A DNA stretch of 64,000 nucleotides, from positions 17,558 to 81,557 of the forward strand of contig JASMKO010000061.1 in NCBI GenBank assembly GCA_030749225.1, given 5' to 3'. Within the stretch, counting starts at the first letter, position 1. Every line of letters begins with the position of its first letter. This DNA is from Verrucomicrobiota bacterium. Its GTDB lineage: Bacteria; Verrucomicrobiota; Verrucomicrobiia; Limisphaerales; UBA1096. Below the pieces are notes generated by a model. The model was not told the DNA's origin and made no database searches. It saw nothing but the letters and a program-made list of their open reading frames with translations. Below are positions 13,512 to 63,948 of the stretch, piece by piece. The translations under genes and the position numbers were made by a program.

Positions 13512-14369
13512 ATGAAGATATACCAAGCGTTGTGGCTGTCGATGGCCCTGTCCTTGGCTGGATGTGCGAGCACTCAGCCAAGCGGCGGCAATTCGAAGAC
13601 AACAGCCAAGACGGCGGTGATTGATGACCGGGCGATCATCGGCCGAATGACGCGTGAGGCATCGAGAATGATGGATTCCGGGAAACCGGTTTCGATGGAA
13701 TCGTTGATTGGGCAATTGAAAAAGGAACCGAGCGTTAGTATTCGCCTGCCAGATGGGCAACGGGGGCAACTGAAGCACAAGCGGGAAGCGGTCGTTGTGG
13801 TTGGTGGGGTATATAAATGTGATCGTTGCACGCGATGGCATGTGGCTCCGGCAAGCGGATTCCTGATTGCGGACGACCTGGTGGTGACGAACTATCACGT
13901 GGTGAATCAGCCGGAGCGTGCTGCGCTCGCAGTACGGTTGTTTGACGGCCGAGTGTTCATGGTTGAGTCGGTGGTCGCCGCGAGTGAGCGTTATGACCTG
14001 GCTGTGTTGCGTGTTCCGGAGACAGGTGTGTCTCCCGTGACGCTTGGCCAAGCGGCACCGGTAGGGGCCAAGGTCTCCTTGTTCAGCCATCCGAACCAGC
14101 ATTTTTACACTTTGAGCGAGGGGCGGGTAGCGAGGTATTTCATGACACAGCGCAATCGCCGCCGCGTGCCGGCGATGTCGATTACGGCCGACTTTGGCCG
14201 GGGATCAAGTGGCGCGCCAGTACTGAACGAATCAGGGCAGGTGGTTGGCATCGTGACCAGCACCGAGTCGCTCTACTACACAGACAAGGATGGCGAACAG
14301 AAGAACCTGCAGATGGTCTTCAAAAACTGTGTGCCAGTAAGCCAGTTGCGTGAGTTAATCGGCGGTTGA
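13512..14369 (+). CDS. Trypsin-like (S1) serine protease lipoprotein
   Basis: Lipobox LAGC; ASGFLI, catalytic TNYHV, YDLAVL and GSSGAPVLN..GQVVGI motifs. Confidence 0.85.
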   Translation: MKIYQALWLSMALSLAGCASTQPSGGNSKTTAKTAVIDDRAIIGRMTREASRMMDSGKPVSMESLIGQLKKEPSVSIRLPDGQRGQLKHKREAVVVVGGVYKCDRCTRWHVAPASGFLIADDLVVTNYHVVNQPERAALAVRLFDGRVFMVESVVAASERYDLAVLRVPETGVSPVTLGQAAPVGAKVSLFSHPNQHFYTLSEGRVARYFMTQRNRRRVPAMSITADFGRGSSGAPVLNESGQVVGIVTSTESLYYTDKDGEQKNLQMVFKNCVPVSQLRELIGG

Positions 14370-14372
14370 TCG

Positions 14373-16133
14373 TCAGTCCTTGCTTGGGACACGGATGCTC
14401 TCAACCAAGTCCTGTACCTCCTGCGGGGCATCTGCTGCGGTCTTCGAGGCAGCAAACGCGACGGCAAAATTGACCAAGGCACCGATGGCTCCGAATGCAT
14501 TCGGTGTGATGCCGAGGAACCAATTCGGCTCCATACTTCCCAGAAAACTGGTGCTGGAAATGAACAGAATGCCCTTGTGCTGAAACACGTAAAGCAACGT
14601 GACACTCATGCCGGCGATCATCCCGGCTACTGCTCCCTGACGGTTCATTTTCTTTGAGAAAATGCCCAACATCAACACCGGGAAAATCGATGAGGCGGCC
14701 AAGCCGAAGGCGATGGCCACCGTCCCGGCGGCGAAGTCAGGAGGGTTCAATCCAAAGTAACCGGCCACTGCGATTGCGGCGACCATGGCCAAACGGCTGG
14801 CATTGAGTTCCTTTTTTTCAGAAATATCCGGTCGCAGAATGCCCTTAAGGAGGTCGTGCGAGATAGCTGAGGAAATCGCGAGAAGTAGACCAGCAGCAGT
14901 GGAGAGTGCAGCAGCTAGTCCGCCAGCCACCACCAGCGCAATCACCCACCCGGGCAGGTTGGCAATTTCGGGGTTGGCCAGTACGATAATGTCATTATCT
15001 ACAGTGGTCATTTCGTTGCCTGCCCAGCCGTATTCGGCGGCCTTTGTGGCAAAGGTTTTGTCTTGGTCGTTGTAATACTGGATGCGGCCGTCTCTGTTTT
15101 TGTCCTCAAATTTGAGCAGGCCGGTTTTTTCCCAATTCTTGAACCACTCGGGGCGTTTTTCGTATTCGAGACTTCCTGTGGCCTCACCAACGCGGCCGGG
15201 TTGGATGGTTTCGGTAAGATTAAGACGGGCCATAGCGGCGACAGCGGGGGCGGTGGTGTACAGGATGGCAATGAAGACTAGCGCCCAGCCGGCGGACAAG
15301 CGCGCGTCGCTTACTTTCGGCACGGTGAAGAAGCGAATGATTACATGTGGCAAGCCGGCGGTGCCGATCATGAGCGTCATCGTATAGACGAACATGTTCA
15401 ACTTGTTGCCATTGACGGCTGTGGTGTATTGGTTGAAGCCTAAATCCTGAATAACCTTGTCTAATTTTTCCAGCAGTGGTGTGCCGTCAGCAACCGACCC
15501 GCCGAGGCCAAGCTGCGGGATCGGGTTGCCGGTGAGATTGAGGGAAATGAAAATGGCTGGGACCGTGTATGCAAAAATCAAAACAACATACTGTGCGATC
15601 TGTGTGAATGTGATGCCCTTCATTCCACCAAGTACAGCGTAGAAGAAGACGATACCCATCCCAATGTACAAGCCGGTGTTGTAGTCGGTTTCAAGAAAAC
15701 GGGAGAAGGCAACGCCGACACCCTTCATCTGCCCGATAACGTAAGTGACGGACACGATAATGAGGCAGATGACGGCAACAATACGGGCGGTTTTTGAATA
15801 GAACCGTTCACCGATGAATTCCGGCACGGTGAATTTGCCGTATTTGCGCATGTACGGCGCTAGCATTAAAGCAAGCAGTACATAGCCTCCGGTCCAGCCC
15901 ATGAGAAAGACCGAACCACCGTATCCGGCAAAGGCAATCATGCCAGCCATCGAGATAAACGAGGCAGCGCTCATCCAGTCGGCCGCGGTAGCCATACCGT
16001 TTGAAATAGGGCTGACACTGCCGCCCGCCACGTAGAATTCCTTAGTTGATGAAGCCTTGCTCCAGATCGCGATGCCTATGTAGAGGGCGAACGACAGGCC
16101 AACAACAATGTAAGTCCAGATTTTTACGTCCAT
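14373..16133 (-). CDS. actP: Cation/acetate symporter, ActP-like (sodium:solute symporter family)
   Basis: NGMATAADWMSAASF, LGGMKGITFTQ and GTAGLPHVIIRFFTVP motifs; multiple TM helices; paired with a DUF4212 small subunit. Confidence 0.88.
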   Translation of the reverse strand: MDVKIWTYIVVGLSFALYIGIAIWSKASSTKEFYVAGGSVSPISNGMATAADWMSAASFISMAGMIAFAGYGGSVFLMGWTGGYVLLALMLAPYMRKYGKFTVPEFIGERFYSKTARIVAVICLIIVSVTYVIGQMKGVGVAFSRFLETDYNTGLYIGMGIVFFYAVLGGMKGITFTQIAQYVVLIFAYTVPAIFISLNLTGNPIPQLGLGGSVADGTPLLEKLDKVIQDLGFNQYTTAVNGNKLNMFVYTMTLMIGTAGLPHVIIRFFTVPKVSDARLSAGWALVFIAILYTTAPAVAAMARLNLTETIQPGRVGEATGSLEYEKRPEWFKNWEKTGLLKFEDKNRDGRIQYYNDQDKTFATKAAEYGWAGNEMTTVDNDIIVLANPEIANLPGWVIALVVAGGLAAALSTAAGLLLAISSAISHDLLKGILRPDISEKKELNASRLAMVAAIAVAGYFGLNPPDFAAGTVAIAFGLAASSIFPVLMLGIFSKKMNRQGAVAGMIAGMSVTLLYVFQHKGILFISSTSFLGSMEPNWFLGITPNAFGAIGALVNFAVAFAASKTAADAPQEVQDLVESIRVPSKD

Positions 16134-16148
16134 TTATTTGTCTTTGTG

Positions 16149-16424
16149 TTATTCGCTATCCTCGAATTTGAATTCACGGTCAAGTTTGTTCATTAACCTT
16201 ACGTAAGCGAAAATCAGGGCCACGAACACATATATGGACCCCTGCTGTGCCATCCAAAAACCGAGTTTGAATCCGCCAATTTCAATTTGGTTGAGTTGTT
16301 CTACGAGCAAAATGCTGCAACCAAAAGATACGATAAACCAGATCGACAAGAGAGTGATCAGAATGCGGATGTTCGCACGCCAATACGCTTGACGACGGCT
16401 TGGGAGGGTATTTTGATTTTCCAT
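16149..16424 (-). CDS. DUF4212 solute:sodium symporter small subunit
   Basis: YWRAN...LLSIWF.VSFG...GFKLGFWMAQQGSI signature, immediately upstream of the symporter. Confidence 0.88.
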   Translation of the reverse strand: MENQNTLPSRRQAYWRANIRILITLLSIWFIVSFGCSILLVEQLNQIEIGGFKLGFWMAQQGSIYVFVALIFAYVRLMNKLDREFKFEDSE

Positions 16425-16433
16425 GCTATAATT

Positions 16434-17956: not shown

Positions 17957-18038
17957 GTTAACTGGTCGGGCGAATTATCCATGAATTGAGTTGGGCAAAG
18001 CAATCTTTGATTATTCAAAGCTTCTGCAAACAGCTATA

Positions 18039-19560: not shown

Positions 19561-21003
19561 ATGTCCGAGCAAGACAGAGCTAACGCACTGCTGCAAGAGG
19601 GAATTGAACGTGCCAAATGCGGCAAATTAGATGACGCGCTGCGGTTGTTTGACGACGCGCTGGAGGTTGCCCCTGAAAATCCTGTTGTCAATTATAACCG
19701 GGGCTTGGCTCGCCAGCAGGCCGGCTCGATCGAGGCGGCCATCGTGGCATATCGTGCAGCCACTGAAGTGCAGCCACAATTCACGGAGGCGTGGATTAAC
19801 CTGTCTCAGGCGTTGAAACTGCTGGGCCGCTTTTCCCAAGCCTTGGAGGCGGCCGAACGATCTGTCCAACTCGATCCCGCTGAGCCATCCGCTTGGCTAG
19901 CCAAAGGCAATGCATTGCGGGGATTGAATGCGCTTGCCCAAGCGGCCGATTCGTTCCGCAGCGGGGTGTTTGCAGATCCGGGTGATCGGTTGTTAAAAGC
20001 CAGTTTGGCCAACACAATCCGGGAACTTGGCCAAGTCCCGGAGGCAATTCGGTTACTCCGCGAGACGATCGAGGCGCACCCCGATTTCGCCGAGGCACAC
20101 CGTGATCTGGCGCATGCGCTGTTACTCAACGGCGAGTACCGTGAAGGTTGGATAGAGAATCGCTGGCGTTGGGACACTGAATCGCTTCAGAACGCCAAAC
20201 GCCACCAAGAAATCCCGGAATGGAAAGGGCAGCCGCTCACTAGCAAGCGTATTTTGCTTTGGGATGAACAAGGGTTTGGGGATGCGATTCAATTCGTACG
20301 TTTCGTGCCATGGGTTGCTGAGATGGGGGCCGAGGTGGTGCTTGAGGCCCAGCCTCAACTAGTGCGTCTGTTTGAGACCGTGGCTGAAGTGGGTGAAGTG
20401 ATCCCTAGGGGAGGCGCGCTGCCACCGGTGGACTATCAGGTTTCATTGATCGACTTGGGGGGGGTGTTTTGCTCTGAAGTAGCGTCGATACCGAACGAAA
20501 CACCTTATGTCCATGTTGGAAAGATCTACAGGCCGCCCACCGAAAACCGGTTGAGGGTAGGCTTGTGCTGGGCCGGCAATCCATGCCACGACAACGACCG
20601 GAACCGGTCGATGACTTATGAGACATTAAGTCCGTTGCTGGAGTTGCCGCAAATCGACTTCGTCAGCCTGCAAATTGCCCAGGGAGACTGTGAGATGTCC
20701 GCGACTGGGAACCTAAAGGAGAGTCTGGGTGATCCGGTTGACTTCCACGAGACTGCCCGCCTTGTCGCGACACTGGACTTAGTGATTACAATCGATTCAT
20801 CCATTGCCCACTTAGCCGGCGCACTTGGGCAAGCGGTTTGGGTGTTGCTCCCTTACGGCCCAGATTGGCGCTGGATGCTCGGCCGGGACGACTCTCCTTG
20901 GTACCCCGGCACCACGCTATTTCGCCAGGCGGAACCGGGAGATTGGTCTGCTCCCATCCGTGAGATCAGTCAAAAAATTACCGATTTCTTTGCTCAAAAG
21001 TAA
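19561..21003 (+). CDS. TPR-repeat glycosyltransferase (GT9-like C-terminal domain)
   Basis: Several TPR units followed by W.G..L..K.ILL..EQGFGDAIQFVRF, VGLCWAGNP.H.ND..RS, DLVITIDSSIAHLAGALG and WRW....DSPWYP. Start at ATG 19561. Confidence 0.85.
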   Translation: MSEQDRANALLQEGIERAKCGKLDDALRLFDDALEVAPENPVVNYNRGLARQQAGSIEAAIVAYRAATEVQPQFTEAWINLSQALKLLGRFSQALEAAERSVQLDPAEPSAWLAKGNALRGLNALAQAADSFRSGVFADPGDRLLKASLANTIRELGQVPEAIRLLRETIEAHPDFAEAHRDLAHALLLNGEYREGWIENRWRWDTESLQNAKRHQEIPEWKGQPLTSKRILLWDEQGFGDAIQFVRFVPWVAEMGAEVVLEAQPQLVRLFETVAEVGEVIPRGGALPPVDYQVSLIDLGGVFCSEVASIPNETPYVHVGKIYRPPTENRLRVGLCWAGNPCHDNDRNRSMTYETLSPLLELPQIDFVSLQIAQGDCEMSATGNLKESLGDPVDFHETARLVATLDLVITIDSSIAHLAGALGQAVWVLLPYGPDWRWMLGRDDSPWYPGTTLFRQAEPGDWSAPIREISQKITDFFAQK

Positions 21004-24305: not shown

Positions 24306-25295
24306 TTACTCCGTTTGAACAAACGCTTCCAGGTATTGCTCGACAATCTGTTTAAGTGGTGGGGGCATGGGTAGGCCAAGCGCCATGGCACGCGAGCTGT
24401 CCACGGATGTGGGCCAATTGTCGACGATTGCCTGGATACGCGGGTCGAAGGCATTGGACACTTGGCCAAGCGCGAGTGTTTTCTCCCCGGCCAATTCATT
24501 CAAGACTGTTTCGGCCATGGCTGGGGTGACTTGGTGGGCGGGCAAGCAGTATGCACGGTCATCACCTAAGCGTTCCTCCGGTGCCTCATGCAGCGTGATG
24601 AACGAGTCAACGACGGTGCGGAAGCCGGTCATTGGGTGCGGTTGATCGCGGTGAACCGGCAATTCGCAGGTCTCGCCGTTGAGCGGCTCGCGGAACATCC
24701 CACTGGCCCAGCTTGATGCGGCGGCGTTGGGTTTGCCGGGGCGGATGATCACGGTCGGGAGCCGGGCGGATCGGCCGTCAAAATGGCCCTTGCGTGAGTG
24801 GTCGTTTACGAGCAGTTCGCAAATCGCCTTGGTCATGCCGTAGGTCGTTTGGGGTGTGCGCTTGGCCAGATCGCTCACCGGTGTGGGCATTGCGGCGCCA
24901 CCAAAACAGGCGATGCTGCTGGCAAACACCACACGCGGCCGGCCTCCGATCATGCGTGCGGCCTCGAAGATGTTTCGACCACCGTCAAGATTCACACGCA
25001 GGGCATCATCATAGCGCTCCTCGCACTCGCCGCTGACCATCGATGCAAGGTGGAAGATGGAGACATCGGTGCAGCCGTCAATGGCTGACTCGATTAAATC
25101 TCTGTCACCGATGTCGCCGTTAATCTCCTTAATTCGTTCGTCTGTTTGAGGCATGGAAAAGCGGGCATCAATGAGCACTATTTGCTCGATGGGTTCTGGT
25201 GCGCCACTCTGGCCGGTGAGGGTTCCCTGATTGAGGATTTTGCTCGCGAGTTGGGAACCGAGGAATCCACCTCCGCCGGTGATGATGACTTTCAT
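24306..25295 (-). CDS. denD: D-erythronate dehydrogenase-like extended SDR
   Basis: TGGGGFLG, FHLA..VSGE.E, ASSIA.FG, YGMTK and RLPTVIIRPGKPNAAASS.ASG..REPL.G pattern typical of DenD. Confidence 0.78.
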   Translation of the reverse strand: MKVIITGGGGFLGSQLASKILNQGTLTGQSGAPEPIEQIVLIDARFSMPQTDERIKEINGDIGDRDLIESAIDGCTDVSIFHLASMVSGECEERYDDALRVNLDGGRNIFEAARMIGGRPRVVFASSIACFGGAAMPTPVSDLAKRTPQTTYGMTKAICELLVNDHSRKGHFDGRSARLPTVIIRPGKPNAAASSWASGMFREPLNGETCELPVHRDQPHPMTGFRTVVDSFITLHEAPEERLGDDRAYCLPAHQVTPAMAETVLNELAGEKTLALGQVSNAFDPRIQAIVDNWPTSVDSSRAMALGLPMPPPLKQIVEQYLEAFVQTE

Positions 25296-26183
25296 TTAGG
25301 TAAATGAGATGTTGTTGAGTTCCTCGAGATGAGTAAGCAGGCCGCTGTGATCCATGTCCGCCTTGCCGCTATTAACCATGCCGTCGAACAGTTTGTGGAT
25401 TAGCTTTGTGATCGGGAGGTCGAGCCCAAGTTGGTCTGCGGTCTTCAGTGCGTTTTGTAAATCTTTGACTTGAAATTTCGCCGGGCCGCCCGGTTCGAAG
25501 GTTCGCTCGACCATGCGTTGGCCGTGCTCGGTGAGAATGCGACTGGAGGCAAAGCCGCCCTGCAACGCCTCCCGTATTTTCGCTCGATCCGCACCGCCAC
25601 CACCAGCCAATATGAACGCCTCGCTCACCGCGCCAATGGTGATGGCGACGATCACTTGGTTGGCCAGCTTGGCTAATTGCCCGCAGCCACTTGGCCCGAC
25701 ATGGGTTGCTTGGCCAAGCGGAGTGAAGACTGGCTGCATCGCCGAAAAGGTGCTGGCATCGCCACCGGCCATGATGGCTAGTTCGCCGGCCGCTGCGCCC
25801 CGGGTGCCTCCAGAGACTGGGGCGTCGAGGTAGTGTACTCCCTGCTCGGCGTGGCGCTTGGCGTGGTTGATGGCCTCGTCGGCACCGATGGAGCCCATGT
25901 CGATGTGTGTGGCGCCTTCACGGATGGAGTCGGTTGTGTCCTGATCGAACATCACTGCCGACACCGCCGGTCCGTCGGAGAGCATGGTGATGACCACGTC
26001 GGCACCGGCAACAGCGCTTTGCGGTGTGACGGCGACGACAGCTCCGCGCTTGGACAACGGCTCGGCCTTGGCCAGACTACGATTCCACACGGTAAGCGGC
26101 AATCCGGCTTCAAGCAGATTGTGACACATCGGTTCCCCCATTAGGCCGGTGCCGAGGAAGGCGATCTTATTATAACCGCTCAT
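25296..26183 (-). CDS. Beta-hydroxyacid dehydrogenase (2-hydroxy-3-oxopropionate reductase-like)
   Basis: AFLGTGLMG, LDAPVSGG, GQLAKLANQ, GFASSRIL..HGQRM and KDL motifs. Confidence 0.85.
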   Translation of the reverse strand: MSGYNKIAFLGTGLMGEPMCHNLLEAGLPLTVWNRSLAKAEPLSKRGAVVAVTPQSAVAGADVVITMLSDGPAVSAVMFDQDTTDSIREGATHIDMGSIGADEAINHAKRHAEQGVHYLDAPVSGGTRGAAAGELAIMAGGDASTFSAMQPVFTPLGQATHVGPSGCGQLAKLANQVIVAITIGAVSEAFILAGGGGADRAKIREALQGGFASSRILTEHGQRMVERTFEPGGPAKFQVKDLQNALKTADQLGLDLPITKLIHKLFDGMVNSGKADMDHSGLLTHLEELNNISFT

Positions 26184-26210: not shown

Positions 26211-27665
26211 TTAGGCGCTGGGGTCGTAGTTGGTGTTCGGTGCAGGCATCTTCGCTTTCATACGCTTTTGCCAAGCGGCAAGTTTAGCCCGCAGCCGCTT
26301 GACCTCGGCGGGATTGGCCTTGGCCAAGTTGTTGCGTTCGCTGGGGTCATTGGCAAGGTTGTACAGCTCGAATTTGTCGTAATGATAAAACTCGATGAGC
26401 TTCCAGTCACCTTCGCGGATGGAGGCCCCCGGTTTCCATGCGGAGCCATGGTAATGAGGGTAATGCCAGTAGAAGGTTCGCATACCGTACTCGTTGCCTT
26501 TGAGTTGGGGTATGAGGCTTTGCCCGTCGATGTGCAGTTTGGGACGAAGCGGGAGGCCAGCCAGATCGAGCATGGTCGGGAAGAAATCCATGCTAACCAT
26601 CGGTTTGTGAGAGACACTATTTGGTTGTGTGACCTCGGGGGCACGGATGATCGTAGGTTCGCGCACGCCGCCTTCGTACAGCCAGCCCTTGCCGGCCCGG
26701 AGCGGGAGGTTGCAACCGGGGCCGGAGCGTCCACGCTGGAGGGTGCTAAGGCCTCCGTTGTCGCTAAAAAATATGACGACGGTGTTTTTGTCGAGTTTAA
26801 GCTCAGTCAACTTGCTCAGAAGCGCACCGACGCTGTCGTCCACGGCGGCCACCATCGAGGCCAACGCTGAGTTGTCCTGTCGCAGGCGGTTGGTGCCATC
26901 GTGCTCCGGTTCAGTCGGCGTTTTGCCTTCGAACGCCTTGGCCGCCTTGGATTGATAATGGTCGATGTGTTTGTTGTACGCCTGTATTGGAGTGTGGATG
27001 TTGTAGTAGGAAAGATAGAGCAGGAACGGCTTGGTTTGGTCTCGCTCTTTCAGGAATTTGAGAGATTCCTCGGTGAGGCGTTCGGTGAGGTATTCCCCCT
27101 TGTGCTTGGCTTTAAGGGTGGGGTTAGTCCAAGGCGCATAGTAGCCGCCAGGAGGTGAGCCGCGCTGGTGGCCTCCGATGTTCATGTCGAAACCCTGGTC
27201 GGTCGGCCAATGGCCTTTGTCGCCGAGATGCCATTTGCCGGCGAAGAAAGTCTGGTAGCCATGCTCTTTGAGTACTTCGGCAATGGTGACTTCCTCAAGG
27301 GGCAAATGGCGGCGGTCGTCGGGGTGGAGCAGGGGGTTTGTGGGGCGGTTGGGCTGGCCGGGAATCCAGTCGGTGATATCGACGCGCACCGGATGCCTTC
27401 CGGTCATGATGCTGGCGCGTGTCGGGCTGCAAACGGATCCGGCGGCATAGCCATGCGTGAAACGCATCCCGCTCCTGGCCAACTGGTCAATGTTCGGTGT
27501 CTCGTGGAACGTGCTGCCGTTGGCCCCGATGTCCGCCCAGCCCATGTCGTCTACAAGGAAGAATAGAAAATTGGTCTGCTTTGCGGCGTCAAGTGCCGGT
27601 GCGGCTATGATTAAAACACAGAGGATGTAGAGGCGCAGAGGCTCGCAGAGTTTAGTTACTTTCAA
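26211..27665 (-). CDS. Sulfatase (S1, Cys-type)
   Basis: [28 protein letters not shown] and GKG.LYEGG.R motifs. Probable TTG start at 27665; the ORF-track extension overlaps the upstream gene. Confidence 0.9.
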
Positions 27666-30875: not shown

Positions 30876-30889
30876 CGCTTGGCCAAGCG
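30876..30889. repeat. Intergenic perfect copy of the 14-bp palindrome CGCTTGGCCAAGCG
   Basis: Occupies half of the 27-bp gap between the sulfatase stop (30895) and the GNAT start (30867). Confidence 0.9.
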
Positions 30890-51600: not shown

Positions 51601-53799
51601 GGCGCCGTCGCGCCACGGCATCACGCCGCTTGGATAGGGCAAGTCGTCAAGAAAAATTGTTGTGCGGTCGTAGCGACTGTCGCCGTCTCTATCTTCCAGG
51701 ATTCGAATGCGGCCGCCTGGTTTGCCTTTGTCATCCAATCCGAGCGGGTAGTCGGCCATTTCCACCACCCACAACCGGCCGTGCTCGTCCCATTCGAATG
51801 CCACTGGATCCATTACTAGCGGCTCGCTGACCATGAGTTCGACTTTGTAACCCGGCAGCGTTTCGATAGCTTTTGTGGATTCCTCGGGCGATTTGGGAAG
51901 TGGCATCACACCGCGAAGGAGTTCGTCGAACGAACGTCGGTCAACTAGGTTCGGCAGGTGCGCAGTGTCTTCATTTTGCACCCAGAGATGGTCTGAGTGA
52001 AACCAAGCGCCGTTGCTGTTGTGTTCACCACCACGGACAATCATTGGGATGGCATTGCCATCGCTACGTAGCCCGGACATGACTTCGCGTGTCCAGCCAA
52101 CACCCCAACCGAGGATTGGTTGTGGTACGTAGAGATGAAACGAGTACCGGACTTCGTTGGAGTGAATCACATCCAAATGTCCATCCTTGTTTATGTCTTC
52201 AAAACGGACACCGTTGTCACTTCCGTCATCACGAACGATGTGAACATTCTTGGGGAGATTGAAATTAGCTTGTTGCCATCTTCTTTGGCTCTTGTTCCAT
52301 TTTAGTACAGCCTGTTGCCTTGGGTTGCTGACGATGATTTCACACATGCCATCGACGTCTATGTCACGCAATCGTACACCGTTGTCTCGGCCGGAGATGG
52401 TGGTCCGAAGCGCTTGGCCGTCGATTTCCAGCCCTTGGCCAAGTGTTTGGTTATTGCGCCAGTCACTGCCGTCAAAGTGCCAAACGCCGCTAGTTTTTCC
52501 GTTGCTGATCAAGATCGTGGCGTTGCCACTTGCCTGGAGTACGCCGAACCGGGCACCGGCATCTGTGCGCTTGCCGTCGGCATCAGTTTGCACCAACTGA
52601 AATGGGAACGCGGCTGTTTTCCAGCGCTTGGCTTGAGGGTTCCACAGGCGGGTTTGCTGGAGTTGTTCGTTCCCGATGACTGCGTCCATGAAGCCGTCGT
52701 TGTTCAGGTCGAGTAGGCGAACGCCGTTGTCCTGCCCGTTTTCGGCCCTGAGAGGCTGCCCACCTAGTAGGTTTTTCGTGAGCCGCTCGCGGGCCTCGCG
52801 GAAGTTGAGGAACTTGACCTTGTTACCGTGGTTTTCAGTGATGTGATCGATCCAGTCGATCATCTGGGTATTTTTAACCCAGCCGTGAGGGTGGAATACA
52901 AAATTGAAAACACCCTGCTTGAGGACGGTCGCATCGATGGCAGCTTTCCAGTCTTCCACGGTGACCGGGTTACTGTTGCCGAGAAGGTGTTGGGCTTCCC
53001 AATCGCTTGGCACCATGCATGGCATTTCCCAAATACGACTCCCTACGGCATAGGGGTAAGGATAGTTTTCAATGGTGACAACATATGAATCGAAAGGGAT
53101 ATATTTTTCAAACTTTGCCTTCCCATCGGTGTCGGTGAGGAGTGATGCGGGTAGAGATTTGTCCGCCGAGGTGAAGATGTTGAACACTGATGTGTCCATC
53201 TCCAAAAACTGTCCCGCAGGATTGTTTTGCATCAGCAGTTCGGAAAAAACCCTGGGGCTGGGTGTGTTTTGTGAATCGCAGCAGGGTGTCCGAAATGCGA
53301 CTGGCAGGTTGTTGGGGATGTTGTTCAGTAGATCGACTCCTCCGTGGTATGTGTTCATGGCTGGAGTGAAGTTGCGGTTGGCGAGGATGGGGCAGGGGTG
53401 GGAGAGCGTGTGCACCTCGATCGTAACACCCTCCTTTAGCCACTGCTGAAGGTGGGGGTTGGTCGGAGTGATTGAATTGCAAAAAATGCTCAGCGGCGCA
53501 CGGCCGTCAATTTTTTTGAGTCGTTCAAGGATAGGGCGACAAAAATTTTCGTACCGAGTATGCTCGCGCATGTCGTCAATACCTAGGCTTACAACAGCTT
53601 CTACCCCGTTTTCCCCGACCCACTGTGGCGTGGTAAGCCTTGGGAAGGTGAGCCCGACGTGGAACGGATCTTCCCCATCCAGATAGGCGAGGCGGTTGCT
53701 CGCTGGGTTGGCCGGGGTTTGGCTAGGTGCGGCGGACAGAAGAATAGCAATACAGATTATTCGTCCAAGCGAACGGAAGGATTTCCTGCAATGGCTCAT
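48664..53799 (-). CDS. PVC-type heme-binding dehydrogenase-like protein fused to a polysaccharide deacetylase and FG-GAP repeats
   Basis: NodB motifs GIDD, HTLSHP, FRTP and FHPH; D.N.DG..D loops; beta-propeller EPLV.DPV...WD..GRLWVVEM.DYP and FRP...GPDGALW.AD; HEAT repeats; CTACH heme motif with SLMPEG; C-terminal CBM6-like domain. Confidence 0.85.
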   Translation of the reverse strand: MSHCRKSFRSLGRIICIAILLSAAPSQTPANPASNRLAYLDGEDPFHVGLTFPRLTTPQWVGENGVEAVVSLGIDDMREHTRYENFCRPILERLKKIDGRAPLSIFCNSITPTNPHLQQWLKEGVTIEVHTLSHPCPILANRNFTPAMNTYHGGVDLLNNIPNNLPVAFRTPCCDSQNTPSPRVFSELLMQNNPAGQFLEMDTSVFNIFTSADKSLPASLLTDTDGKAKFEKYIPFDSYVVTIENYPYPYAVGSRIWEMPCMVPSDWEAQHLLGNSNPVTVEDWKAAIDATVLKQGVFNFVFHPHGWVKNTQMIDWIDHITENHGNKVKFLNFREARERLTKNLLGGQPLRAENGQDNGVRLLDLNNDGFMDAVIGNEQLQQTRLWNPQAKRWKTAAFPFQLVQTDADGKRTDAGARFGVLQASGNATILISNGKTSGVWHFDGSDWRNNQTLGQGLEIDGQALRTTISGRDNGVRLRDIDVDGMCEIIVSNPRQQAVLKWNKSQRRWQQANFNLPKNVHIVRDDGSDNGVRFEDINKDGHLDVIHSNEVRYSFHLYVPQPILGWGVGWTREVMSGLRSDGNAIPMIVRGGEHNSNGAWFHSDHLWVQNEDTAHLPNLVDRRSFDELLRGVMPLPKSPEESTKAIETLPGYKVELMVSEPLVMDPVAFEWDEHGRLWVVEMADYPLGLDDKGKPGGRIRILEDRDGDSRYDRTTIFLDDLPYPSGVMPWRDGALVSATPNILFARDTNGDGTADETKVLFTGFGEGNQQHRMNGFEYGLDNWVYAANGDSGGTIRSPGKQHSINIRGRDFRFNPNTLAFDTQAGQTQFGRRRDDWGNWFGNNNSFIGWNYPFPEHYIRRNPQLTTARNRQTLGNYNRSHLIKSISQPVQRFNLVGTAKHITAGNSPTPYRDELFDKPTGQLLFVSAPAYNVVRREVLTPDRLSFKSSRPEGANGQEFIASRDAWFRPIMLKTGPDGALWIADFYRLVLEHPEWIPNDVERKLQLRAGSDRGRLYRVFPANKIPRPFHSLAVKTVPELVAALDSPSGWQRDTAQRLLVDRGDASAVPHLAKLLKNSDRPTARLHALCTLDGLKQIQPEHIRQGLEDRHPGVREHAIRVAESLFRTGQVDDLDQTLAQAVSDSDPRVLAQMAFSLGEWKSPIASRLLGRLAMRSSGDPDLQTAIASSASDHSVNILKDLINEGDIRSYGPLTGNLLALAGAEASTDEIKKLLLNLTTKIDKLETWRLTALSALLENAQKRNLPRSELGLDAELLDSLKVIVENHSTETGDRVAALRLLTNIANDAKQVRTILHRQLGALSPTPLFDLALDELNKRDPATAPLLTHWKSYSPNRKNRVLQHILNDEKKTLGLLFAIDNKLVLPAEIGTAFRQLLKQHSNKTIRGQATAHFGRQNTQRDLLVADRLAKVNSLKGDAASGELLFTTHCTACHKLGNTGNAAGPDLAAITDKSPRALLSAILNPNQAVEDRFSVYALVTKDGTQLAGMISSEGANSVALMDLNGQQRQVLRTNIQSLTGLGRSLMPEGFEQVLNNQQLADLIAHINASAHPPKSFPGNKPTLVKENEGGALSLTAATAEIYGDSLVFEEKYSNLGFWRAASDRATWSIKTKRAGVYDVHLNWALDGKSKVNRIQLRIGQNEIVHEVDSTGTWDQYKSTHIGIVELDEGDQRAIVQAVSPISGFVIDLNSLKLIRKNN

Positions 53800-54930: not shown

Positions 54931-54945
54931 GACCGCATTAATCAG

Positions 54946-55512: not shown

Positions 55513-57123
55513 TCAATCCAGCCCATACTTCTCGATCCACGACTGTGGTAGTGTGCCGAAGCTCAACAGCCAGTCGTTGAACCGGCGCAGCGGCCAGCCC
55601 CGTCCCTCCACTAGTTTCCGGTAAAGCCGAGCGTTCTCCAGGCATCCCAGCCAGTAACTCATCGGCACGGCGGGGCTGCCGGTGTACCAGTTCACATCAG
55701 CCTTTGCCCGGGCCTGGGTGAAACCAAGGTGTTTTTGCATGTGCTTCACCGCCTGCCGGTGACTGTACGCTCCGGTTTGAAGTCGGAGATCAACGAGAAT
55801 CCGGTGGCAGCGCCAGAGGGCATCGTGTAGTTGCTGCAGCTTTAGTTCGGCTGACTTGATGATTTCAAGGTCGACACACATCTGCTCGCACCACAGTGTC
55901 CAGCCTTCATAAAAAATCGCATGTTCGTTGAAGACCCGTCGCCATTTGCGCGGGTGGGCATTCGCGAAGATGAACTGCAGGTGATGCCCGGGATAAGCCT
56001 CGTGCGCACAGGTCAGTTCCAGCCCAAAGTGCTGCTGTTGTTCAGCGAGTTTTTCCGCATCCGTTTTTTTCTTCAGGCCAAGGTCGTTGACCCAGAAAGT
56101 GCCGCGCTGTCGTTTGTCGAACGGCCCGGGCGGAGAGTAGGCGGCCATGGGGATGATGTGCGTCATGAAATCGGGCACCAGCGTGATTGCGAGCGAGTCG
56201 CCCTTGGGGAAACTCATCGCCTTGGCCTCCTTGAAGCGGCGAACGATCTCCCGGTTGGTTTTGCGATAGACCGACAATAGGTCGCCCCCCGGCTTCCAAC
56301 TGTCACGTGCGGCTGCCACGATTTGTTCAACCGATTTGTTTTTGCCGAGTTTGGATGAGGCCTTTTTCAGTAGTTCCCCGATACGGTCGATTTCCGCCAA
56401 CGCCACGGCCTCCACCTGTCCAAGCGTGTAGTCCAGGCCAAGTTCGTCGCGGATGCGCCGCTGGAGGCGTTTCTTTCCGATGGCGAACGACCCCGGTTTG
56501 GCCACGCGCTTGGCCATGACGGATTTGCGGTAATTGACGCACGCCCGCTTGGCCAAGCTGATGAGGGAGGCATCTTCAGGTTGCTCTCCGTTGACTTGCA
56601 GGAAGGCGGTCAGCGCGTCAAAAAATGAACCGGAAGCCTTAAACGTGGCGTCCATGATGTTCCGCCAGACTCGCTCCGGTCGATCGATCCGTTTCGCCGC
56701 TTGGCCGAGGTAACGGCGTGATTCTTTCAGGAGACTGCGGAGGTTCTTTGCCGCTCGTTTGGGTTCCGATTCCCCGCGTTGCAGTTCCCGCAGGAGTAAC
56801 TCGAAAACCTCATCGAGACCGTTGGGATCGAGTGTGTGGCGTCCATGTTCAAAATCCTCACATTCCCGGTGGAGCCGGGCGCGGAAGGCCAAGCGGTCAA
56901 GGTTCTGCTCGCCGGACAACGCGGAGGGGGCAATGGTGTCGAGCATTTCCAGGGCGGAGCGGCGTCGGGCATGTTGCCTCCGAAGAGCGGTCAGTGTGGC
57001 AGGATTGAGACGACCCTCGCCACTGCGCAACCCAACGTACGTGGCGTCGGCCGGATGCTCACGGTGGAATGTGGTAAAATAATTGTCGAGCAGCGCTTCA
57101 AAGGTTTTGGCAATCGAGTTCAT
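55513..57123 (-). CDS. DUF885 family protein (metallopeptidase-like)
   Basis: AHEAYPGHHLQ, YEGWTLWCE, RILVDL.L and SYWLG motifs; no signal peptide. Alternative GTG start at 57177. Confidence 0.88.
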   Translation of the reverse strand: MNSIAKTFEALLDNYFTTFHREHPADATYVGLRSGEGRLNPATLTALRRQHARRRSALEMLDTIAPSALSGEQNLDRLAFRARLHRECEDFEHGRHTLDPNGLDEVFELLLRELQRGESEPKRAAKNLRSLLKESRRYLGQAAKRIDRPERVWRNIMDATFKASGSFFDALTAFLQVNGEQPEDASLISLAKRACVNYRKSVMAKRVAKPGSFAIGKKRLQRRIRDELGLDYTLGQVEAVALAEIDRIGELLKKASSKLGKNKSVEQIVAAARDSWKPGGDLLSVYRKTNREIVRRFKEAKAMSFPKGDSLAITLVPDFMTHIIPMAAYSPPGPFDKRQRGTFWVNDLGLKKKTDAEKLAEQQQHFGLELTCAHEAYPGHHLQFIFANAHPRKWRRVFNEHAIFYEGWTLWCEQMCVDLEIIKSAELKLQQLHDALWRCHRILVDLRLQTGAYSHRQAVKHMQKHLGFTQARAKADVNWYTGSPAVPMSYWLGCLENARLYRKLVEGRGWPLRRFNDWLLSFGTLPQSWIEKYGLD

Positions 57124-57929: not shown

Positions 57930-58040
57930 TTATAAGGTTGTTTTTTATGATTTGTCGTGGTGACGCTTTGATAATAAAACAAGCCTAATTATGGCAAGAC
58001 ATCTTTTTGGAATACCCGTACTGTTTGCCCCGTTCGAGGT

Positions 58041-61025
58041 ATGACGATGTTCTGTTTTTTTAAACAACGTGGAATTGGTATTGGATGCCTGCTTGCTGGA
58101 TTGGCTTTCACTTTCGAGGGGCAGGCGGCGGAGTTGTCGGGTGCAGCCAAGGCCGAGTTTTTTGACAAGAAGGTATATCCGATCCTCAAGGAAAACTGTT
58201 TCAAGTGTCACGGAGCGCGGGAGAGGCTCAAGGGCAAGCTGCGACTCACCAGTCGGGAGGGCTTACTCAAGGGAGGGGAGTCTGGGGTTGCCGTCCGCTT
58301 GGCCAAGCCAGAGCAAAGCCTGCTGTTGTCGATGATTTCGTGGAAGGATGAAGACCACGAAATGCCACCAAAGGAAAAACTGCCGGAGGAGCAGATTGCG
58401 CTGCTGACGGAATGGGTTAAGCTTGGGGTGCCGTTTAATCCCGAGAAGGAGATTCATGGCCAGAGAGCGATTGCCGAAAAGCTGCCGACCACAGAGGTCA
58501 ACGCAAGAACCAAGGCAGCATGGGCATTCAAGAGGCCGGGATCGATCTCGCCGCCCAAAGTGGACAAGCCGCATTGGCAGGGAAATGGCATCGATGCGTT
58601 TGTTTATGAGCGACTGCGTAAGGCTGGTTTGCAGCCAAGTACACCCGCCAGTAGGCAGGTGCTGATTCGGCGGGCTTACTACGACCTGACAGGGCTGCCG
58701 CCGTCATTGGCGGAGGTTGAGGCGTTTATTGTCGATTCCTCGCCGGAGGCGTTTGAGAAAGTTATAGACAAGTTGCTTGCCTCGGACCGTTATGGTGAAA
58801 AATGGGGGCGTCATTGGCTTGACCTTGTTCGTTTCGCTGAGACGAACGGCTACGAAAGAGACAGTCGGAAGGATTTGATTTGGAAATATCGCGACTACGT
58901 TATCCGTGCCTTTAATCAGGACAAGCCGTACAATCGGTTTATCATGGAGCAGTTGGCTGGTGACGAGCTTTCGGATCGAGATGCGGACAGCATCACAGCC
59001 ACTGGCTTTTATCGGCTCGGCATTTGGGATGACGAGCCTGCGGATCGTGAACTGGCTCGATACGATTATCTTGATGACATTATACGCACGGTAGGGGAGA
59101 CATTCCTCGGGATCACGATTGGATGTGGCCGTTGCCACGATCACAAAGTAGATCCTGTTACTCAGAAGGACTACTACTCGATGCTCTCATTCTTTAGCGA
59201 TATCTCGCCGCACGGAAAGGGAAGCCGCAATCATGTGCAAATTAGCGACCCAGTTGACAGGGTGGCCTATGATCGCGCTGTTGTGAATAAGCAGGCGCGT
59301 GAGGCGGAATTGCAGGCCAACATAGCACCGATAGAGGAAAAGTTCATCGCCGGTTTAGCCAAGCGCCGGCCGGAACTCAAGCTGAGCGCTGGTTTGCCTA
59401 AGGGCAAGAAGAATGCCTGGGTTGTGCCGGACGCCAACCGCGGCAGGGGAGTCGAGTGGGAGTTCACGTTCGACAAGCCCGCTGAAAACTGGTTCGAGAT
59501 TGCGTTCGACGACAGCAAGTGGCGCAAGGGTCGCAGCGGGTTTGGTTCCCCAGGGACGCCCGGCGCGAAGGTGCGGACGCCGTGGCACTCGAGTGACATC
59601 TGGCTGCGCCGCGATTTCGGTCTCGAGACTATCCCGGGGCAAATGACACTCAAGATTCACCACGACGAGGATGCCGAGGTGTACCTCAACGGTAAACAGG
59701 TCAGGACCTTCAAGGGGTATTTGAAGAATTACGTTGAGGTGGATGTCACCGGTGAATGCCTCGATGTCATTCAGACAGGACGCAATACCCTGGCCATTCA
59801 CTGCAGGCAAACAGGTGGGGGCCAATACATCGATGCCGGGTTGGTGGTGGACGAGAGCACGACCCCAATTCCGGTGTTGATGGCCAGGCACGGTATGGAG
59901 ATTCTTGGGGCGATCAACGTTGAGAAGTACAACAAACTGCGCCTCGAATTGGCCAAGGTGCAATCAACCAAGCTGACGCTCAAGACCGAGTATGCCATGG
60001 CAGTGGCAGAAGATGCCCGACGCAAGATGTGGATTTTGCGCCGCGGTTTACCGGCAATGAAGACGGCAGAGGTTGGGCCGGGTTTCCCGGATATCCTCGC
60101 CGGCCCGGCCGTACATGTGCCGGAGCAATACGCTGTGGGTAAATCCTCGGGCAAGCGTCGTGTGCTTGCTGAGTGGTTGGCCAGCGCTAAGAATCCGATG
60201 GCTTCACGGGTCATGGCAAATCGTCTGTGGCAACATCACTTCGGTCGAGGTATTGTAAGAAGTTCAAACAACTTCGGCTTCGTTGGCGCTCAACCTACTC
60301 ACCCCGATTTGCTAAACTGGCTGGCCAATGAGTTGGTCACTGGTGGTTGGAAACTCAAGCGAATGCACAAGCTGATCATGATGAGTAACACCTATCAAAT
60401 GTCATCAAAGGGGAGAGAAGTTGCCTTGGCCAAGGATCCGAATAATGATCTGATGTGGCGTTACGACATGCGGCGGCTGTCCGCGGAGGAGATTCGTGAT
60501 TCCATTCTGAACTTGACCGGACAACTCAACCTCAAGATGGGCGGGCCAAGCGTTTACACGGAAGTACCGAAGGATGTGTTGGCAACTGCTTCACGTCCGG
60601 ATGCTGCCTGGGGCAGGTCCTCCGAAGAGGAGCGGAATCGGCGCAGTGTTTACATTTATGTCAAGCGTTCGCTGCGTGAGCCATTCCTGAACGCGTTCGA
60701 CTGGGCTGATACCGACAACACTTGCGATGTGCGGTTCGTTACCACGGTCCCAACGCAGACGCTCACTTTGCTAAACAGCAAGTTTCTCAATGACTCGGCG
60801 GCGAGCTTTGCCAAGCGATTAGCAAGGGGGGCGGACGAGGCCAAGGCACAGGTGCGACAGGCGCTGCACTTGGCCACCAACCGAATGCCGACTGTTGAGG
60901 AGATTGACGATGGCTTGAGGTTGATTCACGATCTAAAGGTCAAGGCCAAACTGGACGATAACCAAGCGCTCCAGCGCTTTTGCCTGTTGGTGCTGAACCT
61001 GAATGAATTCCTTTATTTGGACTAA
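58041..61025 (+). CDS. PSCyt1 / DUF1549 / DUF1553 protein with an inserted galactose-binding-like jelly-roll domain
   Basis: CFKCH and CGRCH heme motifs; RHWLDLVRFAETNG and RVMANRLWQHHFG signatures; insert W....FDDS.W..G..GFG...IWLRR.F...HDEDAEVYLNG...G.N.LAIHC.Q..GGQYID. Confidence 0.9.
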   Translation: MTMFCFFKQRGIGIGCLLAGLAFTFEGQAAELSGAAKAEFFDKKVYPILKENCFKCHGARERLKGKLRLTSREGLLKGGESGVAVRLAKPEQSLLLSMISWKDEDHEMPPKEKLPEEQIALLTEWVKLGVPFNPEKEIHGQRAIAEKLPTTEVNARTKAAWAFKRPGSISPPKVDKPHWQGNGIDAFVYERLRKAGLQPSTPASRQVLIRRAYYDLTGLPPSLAEVEAFIVDSSPEAFEKVIDKLLASDRYGEKWGRHWLDLVRFAETNGYERDSRKDLIWKYRDYVIRAFNQDKPYNRFIMEQLAGDELSDRDADSITATGFYRLGIWDDEPADRELARYDYLDDIIRTVGETFLGITIGCGRCHDHKVDPVTQKDYYSMLSFFSDISPHGKGSRNHVQISDPVDRVAYDRAVVNKQAREAELQANIAPIEEKFIAGLAKRRPELKLSAGLPKGKKNAWVVPDANRGRGVEWEFTFDKPAENWFEIAFDDSKWRKGRSGFGSPGTPGAKVRTPWHSSDIWLRRDFGLETIPGQMTLKIHHDEDAEVYLNGKQVRTFKGYLKNYVEVDVTGECLDVIQTGRNTLAIHCRQTGGGQYIDAGLVVDESTTPIPVLMARHGMEILGAINVEKYNKLRLELAKVQSTKLTLKTEYAMAVAEDARRKMWILRRGLPAMKTAEVGPGFPDILAGPAVHVPEQYAVGKSSGKRRVLAEWLASAKNPMASRVMANRLWQHHFGRGIVRSSNNFGFVGAQPTHPDLLNWLANELVTGGWKLKRMHKLIMMSNTYQMSSKGREVALAKDPNNDLMWRYDMRRLSAEEIRDSILNLTGQLNLKMGGPSVYTEVPKDVLATASRPDAAWGRSSEEERNRRSVYIYVKRSLREPFLNAFDWADTDNTCDVRFVTTVPTQTLTLLNSKFLNDSAASFAKRLARGADEAKAQVRQALHLATNRMPTVEEIDDGLRLIHDLKVKAKLDDNQALQRFCLLVLNLNEFLYLD

Positions 61026-61045
61026 TCCTAACGTTTGACAAGAAC

Positions 61046-62545: not shown

Positions 62546-62596
62546 CTTCGACAAAGGAGATTCACTTGAATCATGCTTTAGATAAGGAACCCGATC

Positions 62597-63505
62597 ATGG
62601 AAAAAAAGAACCGTTTGTTTGGGGATACTGCAAGAACACCATCCACAAGATGCTTCTCCATGCAGACAGCCATTAGCGAGTCAAGGGGCTTCACGCTGAT
62701 TGAGTTGCTGGTGGTGATTGCCATCATTGCCATACTGGCAGCTCTGTTGTTGCCTGCCCTGGCGCAGGCCAAGGCCAAGGCGCAGCAGATTTTCTGCATG
62801 AACAACGAGAAGCAGATGGGGATCGCCCTGCAGATGTATGTGTCCGATAACGGATACTATCCGGGGCATTGGGATGCACGGGCTAGGATTGGCAAATCGA
62901 AGCACACCGGTAACTTCGTTAACAATGCCATCGCGTGGCCCGGTCGCCTGTACGGCTACGCGGAAAGTACGGAGTTGTTTTTCTGTCCGGCAAAGAAGGG
63001 GGACGGTGCTGAACGATTCCGCTGGAAAGATTACAAGGGGAAAGATCCAGCGAAGAAGGATTCAGCTTTTCCATTTAACCTTTATCCTGGTGGAGGCGCG
63101 TTCTTCACCTACGGTTACAACGACTGGGGAGTGCGAGAATTCGTGAGAGTCAATAATCGTACTTTGGGCCTCGGCGGGGATGTCCAGAGTGAGGCTGACC
63201 TGATTCCTGAGAGTGTTGTCCGAGTGCCTTCCGACATGATCTGCATTTCTGACACTCAGGCGGATGGGACATGGGACTGCGCAGTGGATCCTTGTGACGG
63301 TGGTAATTTTAATAATCCAGCTCGCGAGTGGCCGAGTAAGCGGCATACTTTGGGCTCGAACATCCTGCTGGCCGACGGGCATTCCGAGTACCACAAGATG
63401 ATGGACTTGGTGGCTCGCAAGCCAACAGGTACATTTAAACCGGATGCGGAAAATATGCTCCGGCGCTGGAACAATACCAACGAGCCTCACCGTCAATGGT
63501 GGTAA
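62597..63505 (+). CDS. Prepilin-type N-terminal cleavage / DUF1559 (H-X9-DG) protein
   Basis: [34 protein letters not shown] and C-terminal RH..G.N...ADGH. Alternative start at 62660. Confidence 0.9.
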
Positions 63506-63512
63506 GCTGAGG

Positions 63513-63863
63513 ATGAATGACAAGGCCAAGCTCGGTTTGTCGATCGTCGCCATCATAGTTTGCGGTGGTTTCATCGTTAAGTCGTTGTTGTCGTCTGGAA
63601 CGAGTGCGGACTTCCCTGATGGGGGTACATGGACTCAATGCAATGCTTGTGGGGAAATGCAAGTCATTGGTCCCGAGGCTCGGGGTGAATTCTATGACAA
63701 TAACCCGAGTCAATTGGGCCAGTCGATGACATGCCCTAAATGCAAACGCGGCCGCCTGGTGGATGGGTTGAGGTGTCCTGTAAATGGATGTTTCTACGTC
63801 CAGGCCGGCCAGTTACCGGACGGTAGGCCGTTATGTCCCAAGTGCAAGAAGCCGTTCCCTTGA
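63513..63863 (+). CDS. Small membrane-anchored Cys-rich (zinc-ribbon-like) protein
   Basis: ATG 7 bp after the DUF1559 stop, preceded by GAGG; N-terminal TM helix; CNAC, CPKC, CPVNGC and CPKC. Confidence 0.7.
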   Translation: MNDKAKLGLSIVAIIVCGGFIVKSLLSSGTSADFPDGGTWTQCNACGEMQVIGPEARGEFYDNNPSQLGQSMTCPKCKRGRLVDGLRCPVNGCFYVQAGQLPDGRPLCPKCKKPFP

Positions 63864-63948
63864 GCTCTTGGCCAAGCGCGATTTTCGTTGGTGGCAAATG
63901 GTTGCTTGGTGGGTTTGATAACAGAACGCTTGCTTTGCCCATCATATC

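Follow-up and report, generated by a model that had tools for sequence, protein, structure and literature searches.

Short DNA words that recur throughout bacterial chromosomes have been described in several forms. The matS, SlmA-binding (SBS), Noc-binding (NBS) and parS sites are dyads of 13–16 bp that are read by dimers (MatP, SlmA, Noc and ParB, respectively), occur in tens of copies and are confined to chromosome domains. Proteins that loop DNA show a dependence on helical phase, and repetitive extragenic palindromic (REP) sequences and bacterial interspersed mosaic elements (BIMEs) are palindromic and frequent directly after stop codons. Uptake of sequence-tagged DNA is on record in two proteobacterial families and, with methylated DNA, in Campylobacter, and what the highly iterated palindrome HIP1 does in cyanobacteria has been a question for 30 years. 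The present analysis concerns a palindromic word, with the 10-mer core CTTGGCCAAG, that is dispersed through a stretch of 64,000 nucleotides from a Verrucomicrobiota bacterium (GenBank assembly GCA_030749225.1, contig JASMKO010000061.1, positions 17,558 to 81,557 of the forward strand), referred to as the window. An earlier note on this DNA had likened the word to HIP1 and had offered methyl-directed repair, a nucleoid-organizing protein or an uptake signal as its cause; from the comparison of 26 genomes of the genus an uptake signal is now somewhat favoured.

The DNA uptake sequences (DUS) and uptake signal sequences (USS) of the two proteobacterial families are reported to arise by point mutation, and biased uptake with recombination is described as sufficient by itself to fill a genome with them in a fairly even spread, new DNA being poor in them (PMC7811141). 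Competence is reported to be frequently lost (PMC1626085). In Campylobacter jejuni the word RAATTY is a methylated uptake signal (as cited in bioRxiv 2024.09.10.611283). For HIP1, Elhai's ratchet needs a cognate methyltransferase (PMC4390886), and the palindrome has been reported to raise transformation and to track uptake genes (bioRxiv 2024.09.10.611283; PMC13756078). The Verrucomicrobiota palindrome is real, lineage-specific and apparently undescribed. No published description of it was found in literature searches (supplements of the cited papers being outside their scope), which agrees with the earlier note's unawareness of one in Verrucomicrobia, and papers containing the letters of the word were, among the matches listed, unrelated by title.

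Abundance and structure of the palindrome

The source genome (G000; 3.08 Mb, 58.6% GC, 120 contigs) was analysed together with 25 other genomes of its genus (G001 to G025). The window contains 21 exact copies of the 10-mer where 0.08 are expected from 100 dinucleotide shuffles, in agreement with the earlier count of at least 21 against fewer than 0.1. Six of these extend to the perfect 14-mer CGCTTGGCCAAGCG (at 14043, 30114, 30878, 32584, 44152 and 44526), as had been claimed, and the reading frames recorded at the time are borne out, with LGQA at 14043 and 36900, RLAKR at 32584 and 44526, and AWPS at 40534; the two copies named as intergenic (30878 and 63867) both lie directly after stop codons. 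At 0.33 sites per kb the window is below the G000 mean of 0.49 per kb, and its first 14 kb hold no exact copy.

Across G000 the word is the most frequent of all 10-mers, with 1,522 copies (739 as 12-mers and 381 as 14-mers) on 119 of the 120 contigs, where Markov models of orders 1 to 4 predict 5, 10, 20.5 and 117. With genes called by a hexamer model (2,398 genes), 1,188 of 1,521 sites are coding (78%; 427 per Mb), 315 are intergenic (1,051 per Mb) and 18 span a boundary. The called genes hold 1,189 copies against 60–82 in 10 synonymous-codon shuffles, and the enrichment thus persists under both the codon-aware and the high-order Markov models that the earlier note had proposed as controls.

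All 26 genomes of the genus are enriched (41–3,286 10-mers). G000 and 20 others hold 427–3,286, and five motif-poor genomes of 41–43% GC hold 41–65 against 1–4 for a control word. Since the 25 other genomes are enriched and share sites at orthologous positions, the assembly artefact that the earlier note had considered is excluded. The 35 genomes examined from other families of the order contain 0–48 10-mers, like the control word. In public records at least 128 of 130 loci with a tandem 20-mer form are titled as Verrucomicrobiota metagenome-assembled genomes (MAGs), among the matches listed. A homologue of one protein of the genus is labelled Limisphaerales in its source record. The carriers are a group of uncultured marine Verrucomicrobiota in which the word occurs about once per 1–3 kb, and the earlier description of a lineage-specific, dispersed, DNA-level word kept by a dedicated system was right. 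A replacement palindrome in the low-GC genomes was sought in samples of 32–88 kb from each of five genomes and none was found. Within G000, 13 of the 15 longest motif-free stretches have 33–55% GC against 59% for the genome; the remaining two have 56% and 59%, the latter being a ribosomal protein operon. The lowest decile of GC content at third codon positions carries 0.40 sites per kb against about 1.1. Ribosomal RNA was not found in the G000 assembly.

The full consensus is (C/G)CGCTTGGCCAAGCG(C/G), beyond which the flanks carry no information. The centre of the palindrome is its strictest part and single-mismatch variants are most frequent at the outer positions. The spacing of the half-sites is fixed, with 739 copies of GCTTGGCCAAGC against 0–7 for each spacer of 1–11 bp. 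A hairpin, cruciform or template switching was considered as the origin of an apparent left–right symmetry of the flanks, and rejected when this symmetry vanished once the sites were split by frame and location. Since no symmetry is left beyond the consensus, the word looks like two half-sites rather than a hairpin, and these would be bound by a two-fold symmetric protein. In gap-free alignments of the relatives sites are gained and lost by point substitution and are kept at orthologous positions, a comparison that the earlier note had suggested. The proteome of G000 bears the imprint of the word, as LAK, LGQ, GQA and AKR are its four most enriched tripeptides (3.4–3.9-fold). G000 also contains 131 copies of CCAAGCGCTTGG, in which two sites overlap at an offset of 12 bp, the most frequent pair distance.

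Competence gene loss and site decay

Four genes connected with transformation are unevenly distributed in the genus: comEC and dprA are each found in 14 of 26 genomes, full-length comM in 13 and radC in 11, and none of the four was found in the five motif-poor genomes. Synteny was used to tell gene loss from missing assembly. In G001, G004, G008, G024 and G011 comEC is deleted, a vanZ-like gene adjoining ffh directly; the locus is replaced by other DNA in G025, and 154 aa remain in G005. Similarly, G006, G008, G011 and G025 have lost dprA from between the flanking genes, and in G005 it carries a frameshift. Internal deletions are present in comM of G005 and G012; no comM was detected in the five motif-poor genomes, in G025 or in G011, the last of which has also lost radC by deletion. 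Pilus ATPases are present in the genus.

A 20-protein FastTree phylogeny rooted on five outgroups (placed by ffh only) distributes the competence losses over five separate branches, with G012 and G024 sparsely covered and the root near G012 unresolved. In this tree the motif-poor clade groups with motif-rich G003 as its sister (909 sites per Mb; support 0.999). A MutL tree places G025 differently, still apart from the motif-poor clade. Site density follows the losses: competence-positive genomes have 373–923 sites per Mb, G011 has 291, G025 has 133 and the motif-poor clade 12–23. G005, a recent loss, has 687 per Mb against 734 in its sister G019 (93–96% identical). The motif is thus intact after recent losses of competence (G005, G012) and decayed after older ones.

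The same order is seen at individual sites. Those of G000 are kept exactly in 146 of 217 comparisons with 11 competence-positive genomes (background 10–25%). The figure in G011 is 35 of 122 (background 16%) against 46 of 89 in genomes of similar background (Fisher p 0.0009, sites treated as independent), in G025 it is 5 of 32 (background 11%) and in the motif-poor clade 1 of 82 (2–3%); G002 (1 of 4), G009 (1 of 3) and G005 (2 of 4) give small samples. At four-fold degenerate sites motif bases are 0.90 identical against a background of 0.61, and the three decayed groups give 0.77/0.57, 0.64/0.49 and 0.44/0.28. Identity at codon position 2 is unchanged in G011 and G025 (0.93).

A ParB/Noc paralogue, HU, MutL and pilus ATPases were tried as covariates and none follows the motif. 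MutL (17 of 26 genomes), ParB, HU and the pilus ATPases persist whatever the motif state, and one ParB with one or two HU proteins is found in five of five genomes, motif-rich and motif-poor alike. G025 has a GC content of 0.50 and the motif-poor clade one of about 0.42. As a separate observation, the drop in GC from ~58% to 50% and 42% on branches with competence loss (G001, G004, G006, G008, G024, G025), with MutL kept, may reflect GC-biased gene conversion that has been turned off.

Helical phasing and clustering of sites

The frequency of site-to-site distances rises and falls every 10.45 bp (a period fitted on G000), the amplitude being 0.84 at 15–57 bp, ~0.3 at 200–250 bp and zero past ~290 bp. 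Among pairs of exact 10-mers 15–130 bp apart, 108 of 135 are in phase against 67 expected after correction for codon frame; at 130–250 bp the numbers are 70 of 128 against 64, which is not significant. With up to two mismatches allowed, 546 of 762 pairs are in phase at 15–130 bp (383 expected) and 429 of 702 at 130–250 bp (350 expected), and at 250–400 bp the count is 299 of 587 against 296. Pooled relatives, whose pairs share ancestry, give 168 of 248 against 125, 126 of 199 against 99 and 85 of 164 against 83 with the period fixed; phasing in single relatives is noisy. Since pairs whose members differ in frame or lie in separate genes are phased as well, the phasing is a property of the DNA. 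Protein α-helix periodicity was rejected as its cause on these grounds and because phasing extends beyond 130 bp.

The sites are also clustered. Within 271 genes longer than 2 kb, pairs are 1.7–1.8 times as frequent as expected below 200 bp and 0.63–0.82 times at 400–1,200 bp; a gene-boundary artefact was rejected, as the clustering is present inside long genes. Clusters recur every 1–2 kb, and the flanks of the sites show a weak AA/TT periodicity of about 3%. There are 133 exact sites 0–11 bp past a stop codon, and intergenic DNA is equally dense in sites whether the spacer is divergent, tandem or convergent (1.07–1.21 per kb).

Candidate readers and receptors

Deleted genes were sought in G011 (366 kb) and the motif-poor clade (about 480 kb), and two were picked up, radC and one for a 337-aa HSDR_N_2 family protein (G000:C101:11059-12072; L504:7060-8073). 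Catalytic residues present in the family consensus (E, ExK and QxxxY) are replaced in 13 of 13 aligned genus copies, and the protein looks like a domesticated dead nuclease with a basic, disordered tail and no signal peptide. It is full-length in 13 genus genomes (64–90% conserved), with one weak match in 35 genomes of other families. G011 and G008 have lost the gene by deletion, fragments of it are left in G014, G017 and G018 (373–420 sites per Mb), G025 has it intact, and it was not found in the motif-poor clade. A fold search with its model (pLDDT 73) gave no match at E ≤ 0.001 and weak matches to restriction enzymes. The protein is a candidate reader of the word, offered as a lead chosen post hoc; genes co-lost in the competence-loss lineages form a short list for finding the reader.

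A search for a receptor of the ComP or PpdA/ComN type listed 67 prepilin-like open reading frames (ORFs). Two near-identical pilin clusters in G000 (C43:3-13013 and C51:1-2498) share three pilins and each lies beside a BrnT/BrnA-like pair; the C43 cluster continues with PilV/W/X-like genes and a large protein. Either could encode the tip of a competence pilus. In motif-rich and motif-poor genomes, a helix–hairpin–helix, ComEA-like segment is inserted in the phosphate permease PstC (L389, L390, L391).

Sites in the window and in other DNA

The first exact site of the window is the perfect 14-mer at 14041..14054, in the LGQA frame of a trypsin-like gene; its 10-mer is kept in G010, G016, G018, G014 and G017 and not in G012 or G005. 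A tetratricopeptide-repeat (TPR) gene holds a phased pair (19932..20036), with a near-match at 19932 and an exact 10-mer at 20026, 93 bp or 8.9 turns apart. The exact 10-mer of an epimerase gene (24461..24470) is out of phase with a near-match at 24370, 90 bp or 8.6 turns away. That in an NAD-binding dehydrogenase gene (25709..25718) is kept in most motif-rich relatives and lost in four of four aligned low-GC genomes. Sulfatase genes contain exact 10-mers at 26319..26328 (LAK frame) and 29169..29178 and a perfect 14-mer encoding RLAKR at 32582..32595. Between these a perfect 14-mer is found in a GNAT gene (30112..30125) and another is intergenic (30876..30889), its 10-mer starting 7 bp past the stop of 30895-32733(-) and kept in all aligned relatives. 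Two near-matches at 33775..33983 are 197 bp (18.9 turns) apart. Exact 10-mers follow at 34736..34745 and 35161..35170, each in a VWA gene, and, in the LGQA frame, close to the 5′ end of a 2,344-aa gene (36900..36909), and a phased pair (40533..40690) consists of the exact site at 40534 in the AWPS frame and a near-match at 40679 (146 bp, 14.0 turns).

Further along, perfect 14-mers lie at 44150..44163 and, encoding RLAKR in a C-N hydrolase gene, at 44524..44537, and an exact 10-mer lies close to the 5′ end of a CotH gene (47700..47709). Three near-matches at 50289..50600 are spaced by 101 and 199 bp (9.7 and 19.0 turns) and precede an exact 10-mer at 52434..52443. A DUF885 gene carries a four-site cluster (56496..56710), with sites at 56496, 56508, 56548 (exact) and 56699 and spacings of 12, 39, 51 and 152–203 bp. 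The remaining exact 10-mers are in DUF1553/1549 genes (58298..58307 and 60425..60434) and 3 bp past the stop of ORF 63444-63863(+) (63867..63876).

Other features of the window include the 2,344-aa protein itself (36852-43886), which has no Pfam match at E 1e-5 and lies downstream of an extracytoplasmic function (ECF) sigma factor and a VWA-domain gene. Two flagellin-domain genes of 274–275 aa (21196-22020 and 54012-54839) are outside any flagellar operon, and the former is missing at the orthologous place in two low-GC genomes.

Among 120 viral loci with the 14-mer none has a host-like density, the maximum being three exact copies, and the tandem form occurs in five viral loci with one or two copies each. 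In each of the viral contigs L585, L586 and L587 two exact 10-mers, one in tandem form, are separated by 737 bp; the three contigs are possibly related phages of the genus, with a density below that of the host. Sixteen near-matches in viral contig L244 (3793-9470), mostly GCTTGGCCCCGC and GCTTGACCACGC and several at 12 bp, belong to a different repeat family. Contig L087 of an archaeal MAG carries a large surface-protein gene with four exact 10-mers in 3 kb, 49% GC and no G000 homologue, and is likely a misbinned contig of the genus or contains a transferred gene.

Function of the palindrome and alternative explanations

The palindrome is, on balance, read as a genus-specific, palindromic and multivalent DNA-uptake signal for natural transformation that is kept by molecular drive, a proposal given slightly more than even weight. 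Among the options of the earlier note the uptake signal has the strongest support, given the decay of the word after loss of competence genes; the nucleoid protein stands as the main rival and methyl-directed repair is not upheld. A putative dimeric receptor on a rigid multivalent scaffold would bind duplex DNA before ComEC makes it single-stranded. Fragments with a good site would be preferentially taken up and recombined, giving a molecular drive as for DUS and USS. A neighbouring site within ~200 bp and on the same face of the helix would add avidity and produce phased clusters, and simultaneous binding of several sites has been expected to favour clustering (PMC1939737). Once a stretch of 1–2 kb held a cluster, further sites within the length of a fragment would add little, which could give the zone of repulsion. 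Loss of competence would stop the drive, and sites would then erode by mutation.

Several observations weigh against an uptake signal. G017 has comEC, dprA, comM and radC and keeps just 5 of 22 sites (background 13%); G018 keeps 14 of 39 and G014 15 of 31. G012 has 705 sites per Mb at a GC of 0.52 and keeps 9 of 14 sites despite its broken comM, which would fit if the loss were recent; the comM remnant is barely decayed, being 80.5% identical to G019 against 82–84% for its flanks. The motif-poor clade retains its residual 41–65 10-mers (control 1–4) and 59 copies of TTGGCCAA against 19.5 in shuffles, and LAK is still 2.0-fold enriched there. Five loss events are a small sample, site-level tests treat sites as independent, and recombination is lost along with transformation, so that any weak signal comes under weaker selection. 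ComEA is absent among the HHH_3 matches inspected, which are GspK and PstC fusions. Helical phasing is a classical sign of looping or wrapping inside the cell, and a perfect palindrome in phased clusters departs from the non-palindromic, unclustered form of DUS and USS. The known uptake sequences are also described as bound one at a time (PMC1939737).

The main rival is a nucleoid or looping protein, abundant and either dimeric or tetrameric, that would bridge same-face sites into chromosome units of ~1.5 kb, its sites being weakly selected and eroding without recombination and GC maintenance. Such a protein would account for phasing that fades over ~250 bp, for clusters every 1–2 kb, for a palindromic site of 14–16 bp and for the 133 exact sites just past stop codons, as well as for the residual enrichment in genomes without competence and the decay in competence-positive G017; the periodicity of HIP1 has likewise been read as a role in chromosome structure (PMC5861425). 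It is nevertheless considered unlikely, as site conservation declines towards background in G011 and G025 with protein-level constraint unchanged, the motif-poor clade tolerates a 40- to 70-fold loss, no ParB paralogue is seen, HU is ordinary and the AA/TT periodicity of the flanks is weak. Less probable again is a mark acting after uptake, which would promote recombination or be protective in a Chi-like manner, as has been proposed for homologous HIP1 sites, with the catalytically dead HsdR-N (PD-(D/E)xK) protein as its possible reader. This shares with the uptake signal a dependence of the drive on transformation, and the link to competence; the HsdR-N protein is near genus-specific and lost or fragmented in G008, G011, G014, G017 and G018, and homologous HIP1 sites are reported to raise transformation without methylation (bioRxiv 2024.09.10.611283). 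However, the protein is intact in G025, where the motif has decayed, and G014 and G018, which lack it, keep four-fold motif bases at 0.86 and 0.83, like G007 (0.84). Moreover, incoming DNA is single-stranded after ComEC, leaving the phasing unexplained, and the gene was picked post hoc from the G011 and G008 deletions and is one for which the fold search gave no match at the threshold used.

Methyl-directed mismatch repair or conversion at a GGCC/TGGCCA methyltransferase site, ratcheting the word up as in Elhai's model for HIP, is very improbable. The core does contain GGCC and TGGCCA, MutL is present in 17 of 26 genomes, and mismatches are most frequent at outer positions, as reported for HIP1 (PMC4390886). 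The co-distributed C5 methyltransferase that the earlier note had suggested looking for did not emerge: PF00145 has matches in two genomes out of 26 (G010 and G008, the latter motif-poor), and PF01555 and PF02086 (N4/N6 and D12 families) have none in the six motif-rich genomes searched. A six-frame motif scan of G000, the scan by which type I and IIG families were covered, found no amino-methyltransferase motif pair, and a heparinase proved to be the sole NPPY protein that has a dense cluster of sites. As the genus genomes are 59–93% complete a single miss is weak, and a conserved enzyme would be expected in most. The methylation model is unsupported because no cognate methyltransferase was found; in addition GGCC on its own shows no excess over shuffles, decayed genomes still have MutL and helical phasing has no explanation under it. 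An RNA hairpin, terminator or REP-like element, to which the peak directly after stop codons and the 5-bp stem that the 14-mer can form would point, is the least credible of all, given that 78% of sites are coding, densities are equal among spacer types, flanks are not conserved, extended stems are lacking, U-tracts occur at 9 of 111 post-stop sites and folding z-scores are −0.5 to 0.9 for the three sites tested.

The combination of a word without a methylase, a grammar of phase and five competence losses of different age allows the uptake and chromosome-structure hypotheses for such words to be put to the test with comparative genomics alone. If the link to competence is true, these repeated and datable losses would serve as a natural experiment to explain the existence of highly iterated palindromes. 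An uptake signal would mean that these marine Verrucomicrobiota choose the DNA of kin from seawater, and sites of a nucleoid protein would amount to a bacterial chromatin code with about one cluster per gene.

Comparison with known systems

The nucleoid-protein sites resemble this word as dyads of 13–16 bp, and the fixed half-site spacing is found here. However, the 1,522 exact copies on 119 of 120 contigs, decaying after competence loss, bear no likeness to tens of sites in one chromosome domain. REP and BIME elements are extragenic stem-loop units with conserved flanks, whereas this word is mostly coding, of substitution origin, and has neither stem-loop extension nor conserved flanks.

HIP1 (GCGATCGC) and the alternate HIPs are closer, being hyper-abundant palindromes with orthologous sites kept and gained by substitution, and recently linked to transformation (PMC4390886; PMC5861425; PMC13756078). 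An over-represented palindrome kept at orthologous positions is likewise found here. In contrast to HIP1 the word is longer (14–16 bp), is confined to one genus and has no cognate orphan DNA methyltransferase that could be found. Its periodicities are 10.45 bp and ~1–2 kb, and that reported for HIP1 is 10–90 kb, in a paper where the term 'helical' is not used (PMC5861425). On one Synechococcus plasmid (L583), 38 of 61 exact HIP1 pairs at 15–250 bp fall in the 10.45-bp phase, an ambiguous bias, with no clustering below 200 bp, and the sites sampled from a Nostoc plasmid were too sparse to show one. RAATTY is similarly a palindromic tag of self DNA, as a 6-mer that needs an orphan methyltransferase rather than a 14-mer for which none was found.

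The greatest likeness is to DUS and USS, which share with this word some 1,500–3,000 copies per genome, gain by point mutation in coding and non-coding DNA, a reshaped proteome, scarcity in newly acquired DNA, a tie to competence and a spread at the kb scale. In G000 the copies number 1,522, substitution origin and an altered proteome are both seen, recently acquired DNA is depleted, and competence machinery is present with the word dependent on it, G017 and G012 being imperfect fits. The sequences of Neisseriaceae and Pasteurellaceae are, however, described as non-palindromic and singly bound (PMC1939737), in contrast to a perfect palindrome of 10–16 bp in phased clusters. The dedicated surface receptor of DUS and USS is a minor pilin of the ComP or PpdA/ComN type, of which no counterpart was identified here. 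The word is not assigned to DUS or USS, as it is palindromic and clustered and its uptake role is read from genomes alone. The helical phasing, the clustering and the link to competence are new relative to the earlier note. With somewhat less confidence than the uptake role itself, it is tentatively suggested that sequence-specific uptake could here have evolved independently for a third time, as the first such system to have a grammar, in which an unmethylated palindrome of 14–16 bp would be read by a multivalent receptor at several sites on the same face of the helix, and the genomes and proteomes of a whole genus would have been rewritten as a result.

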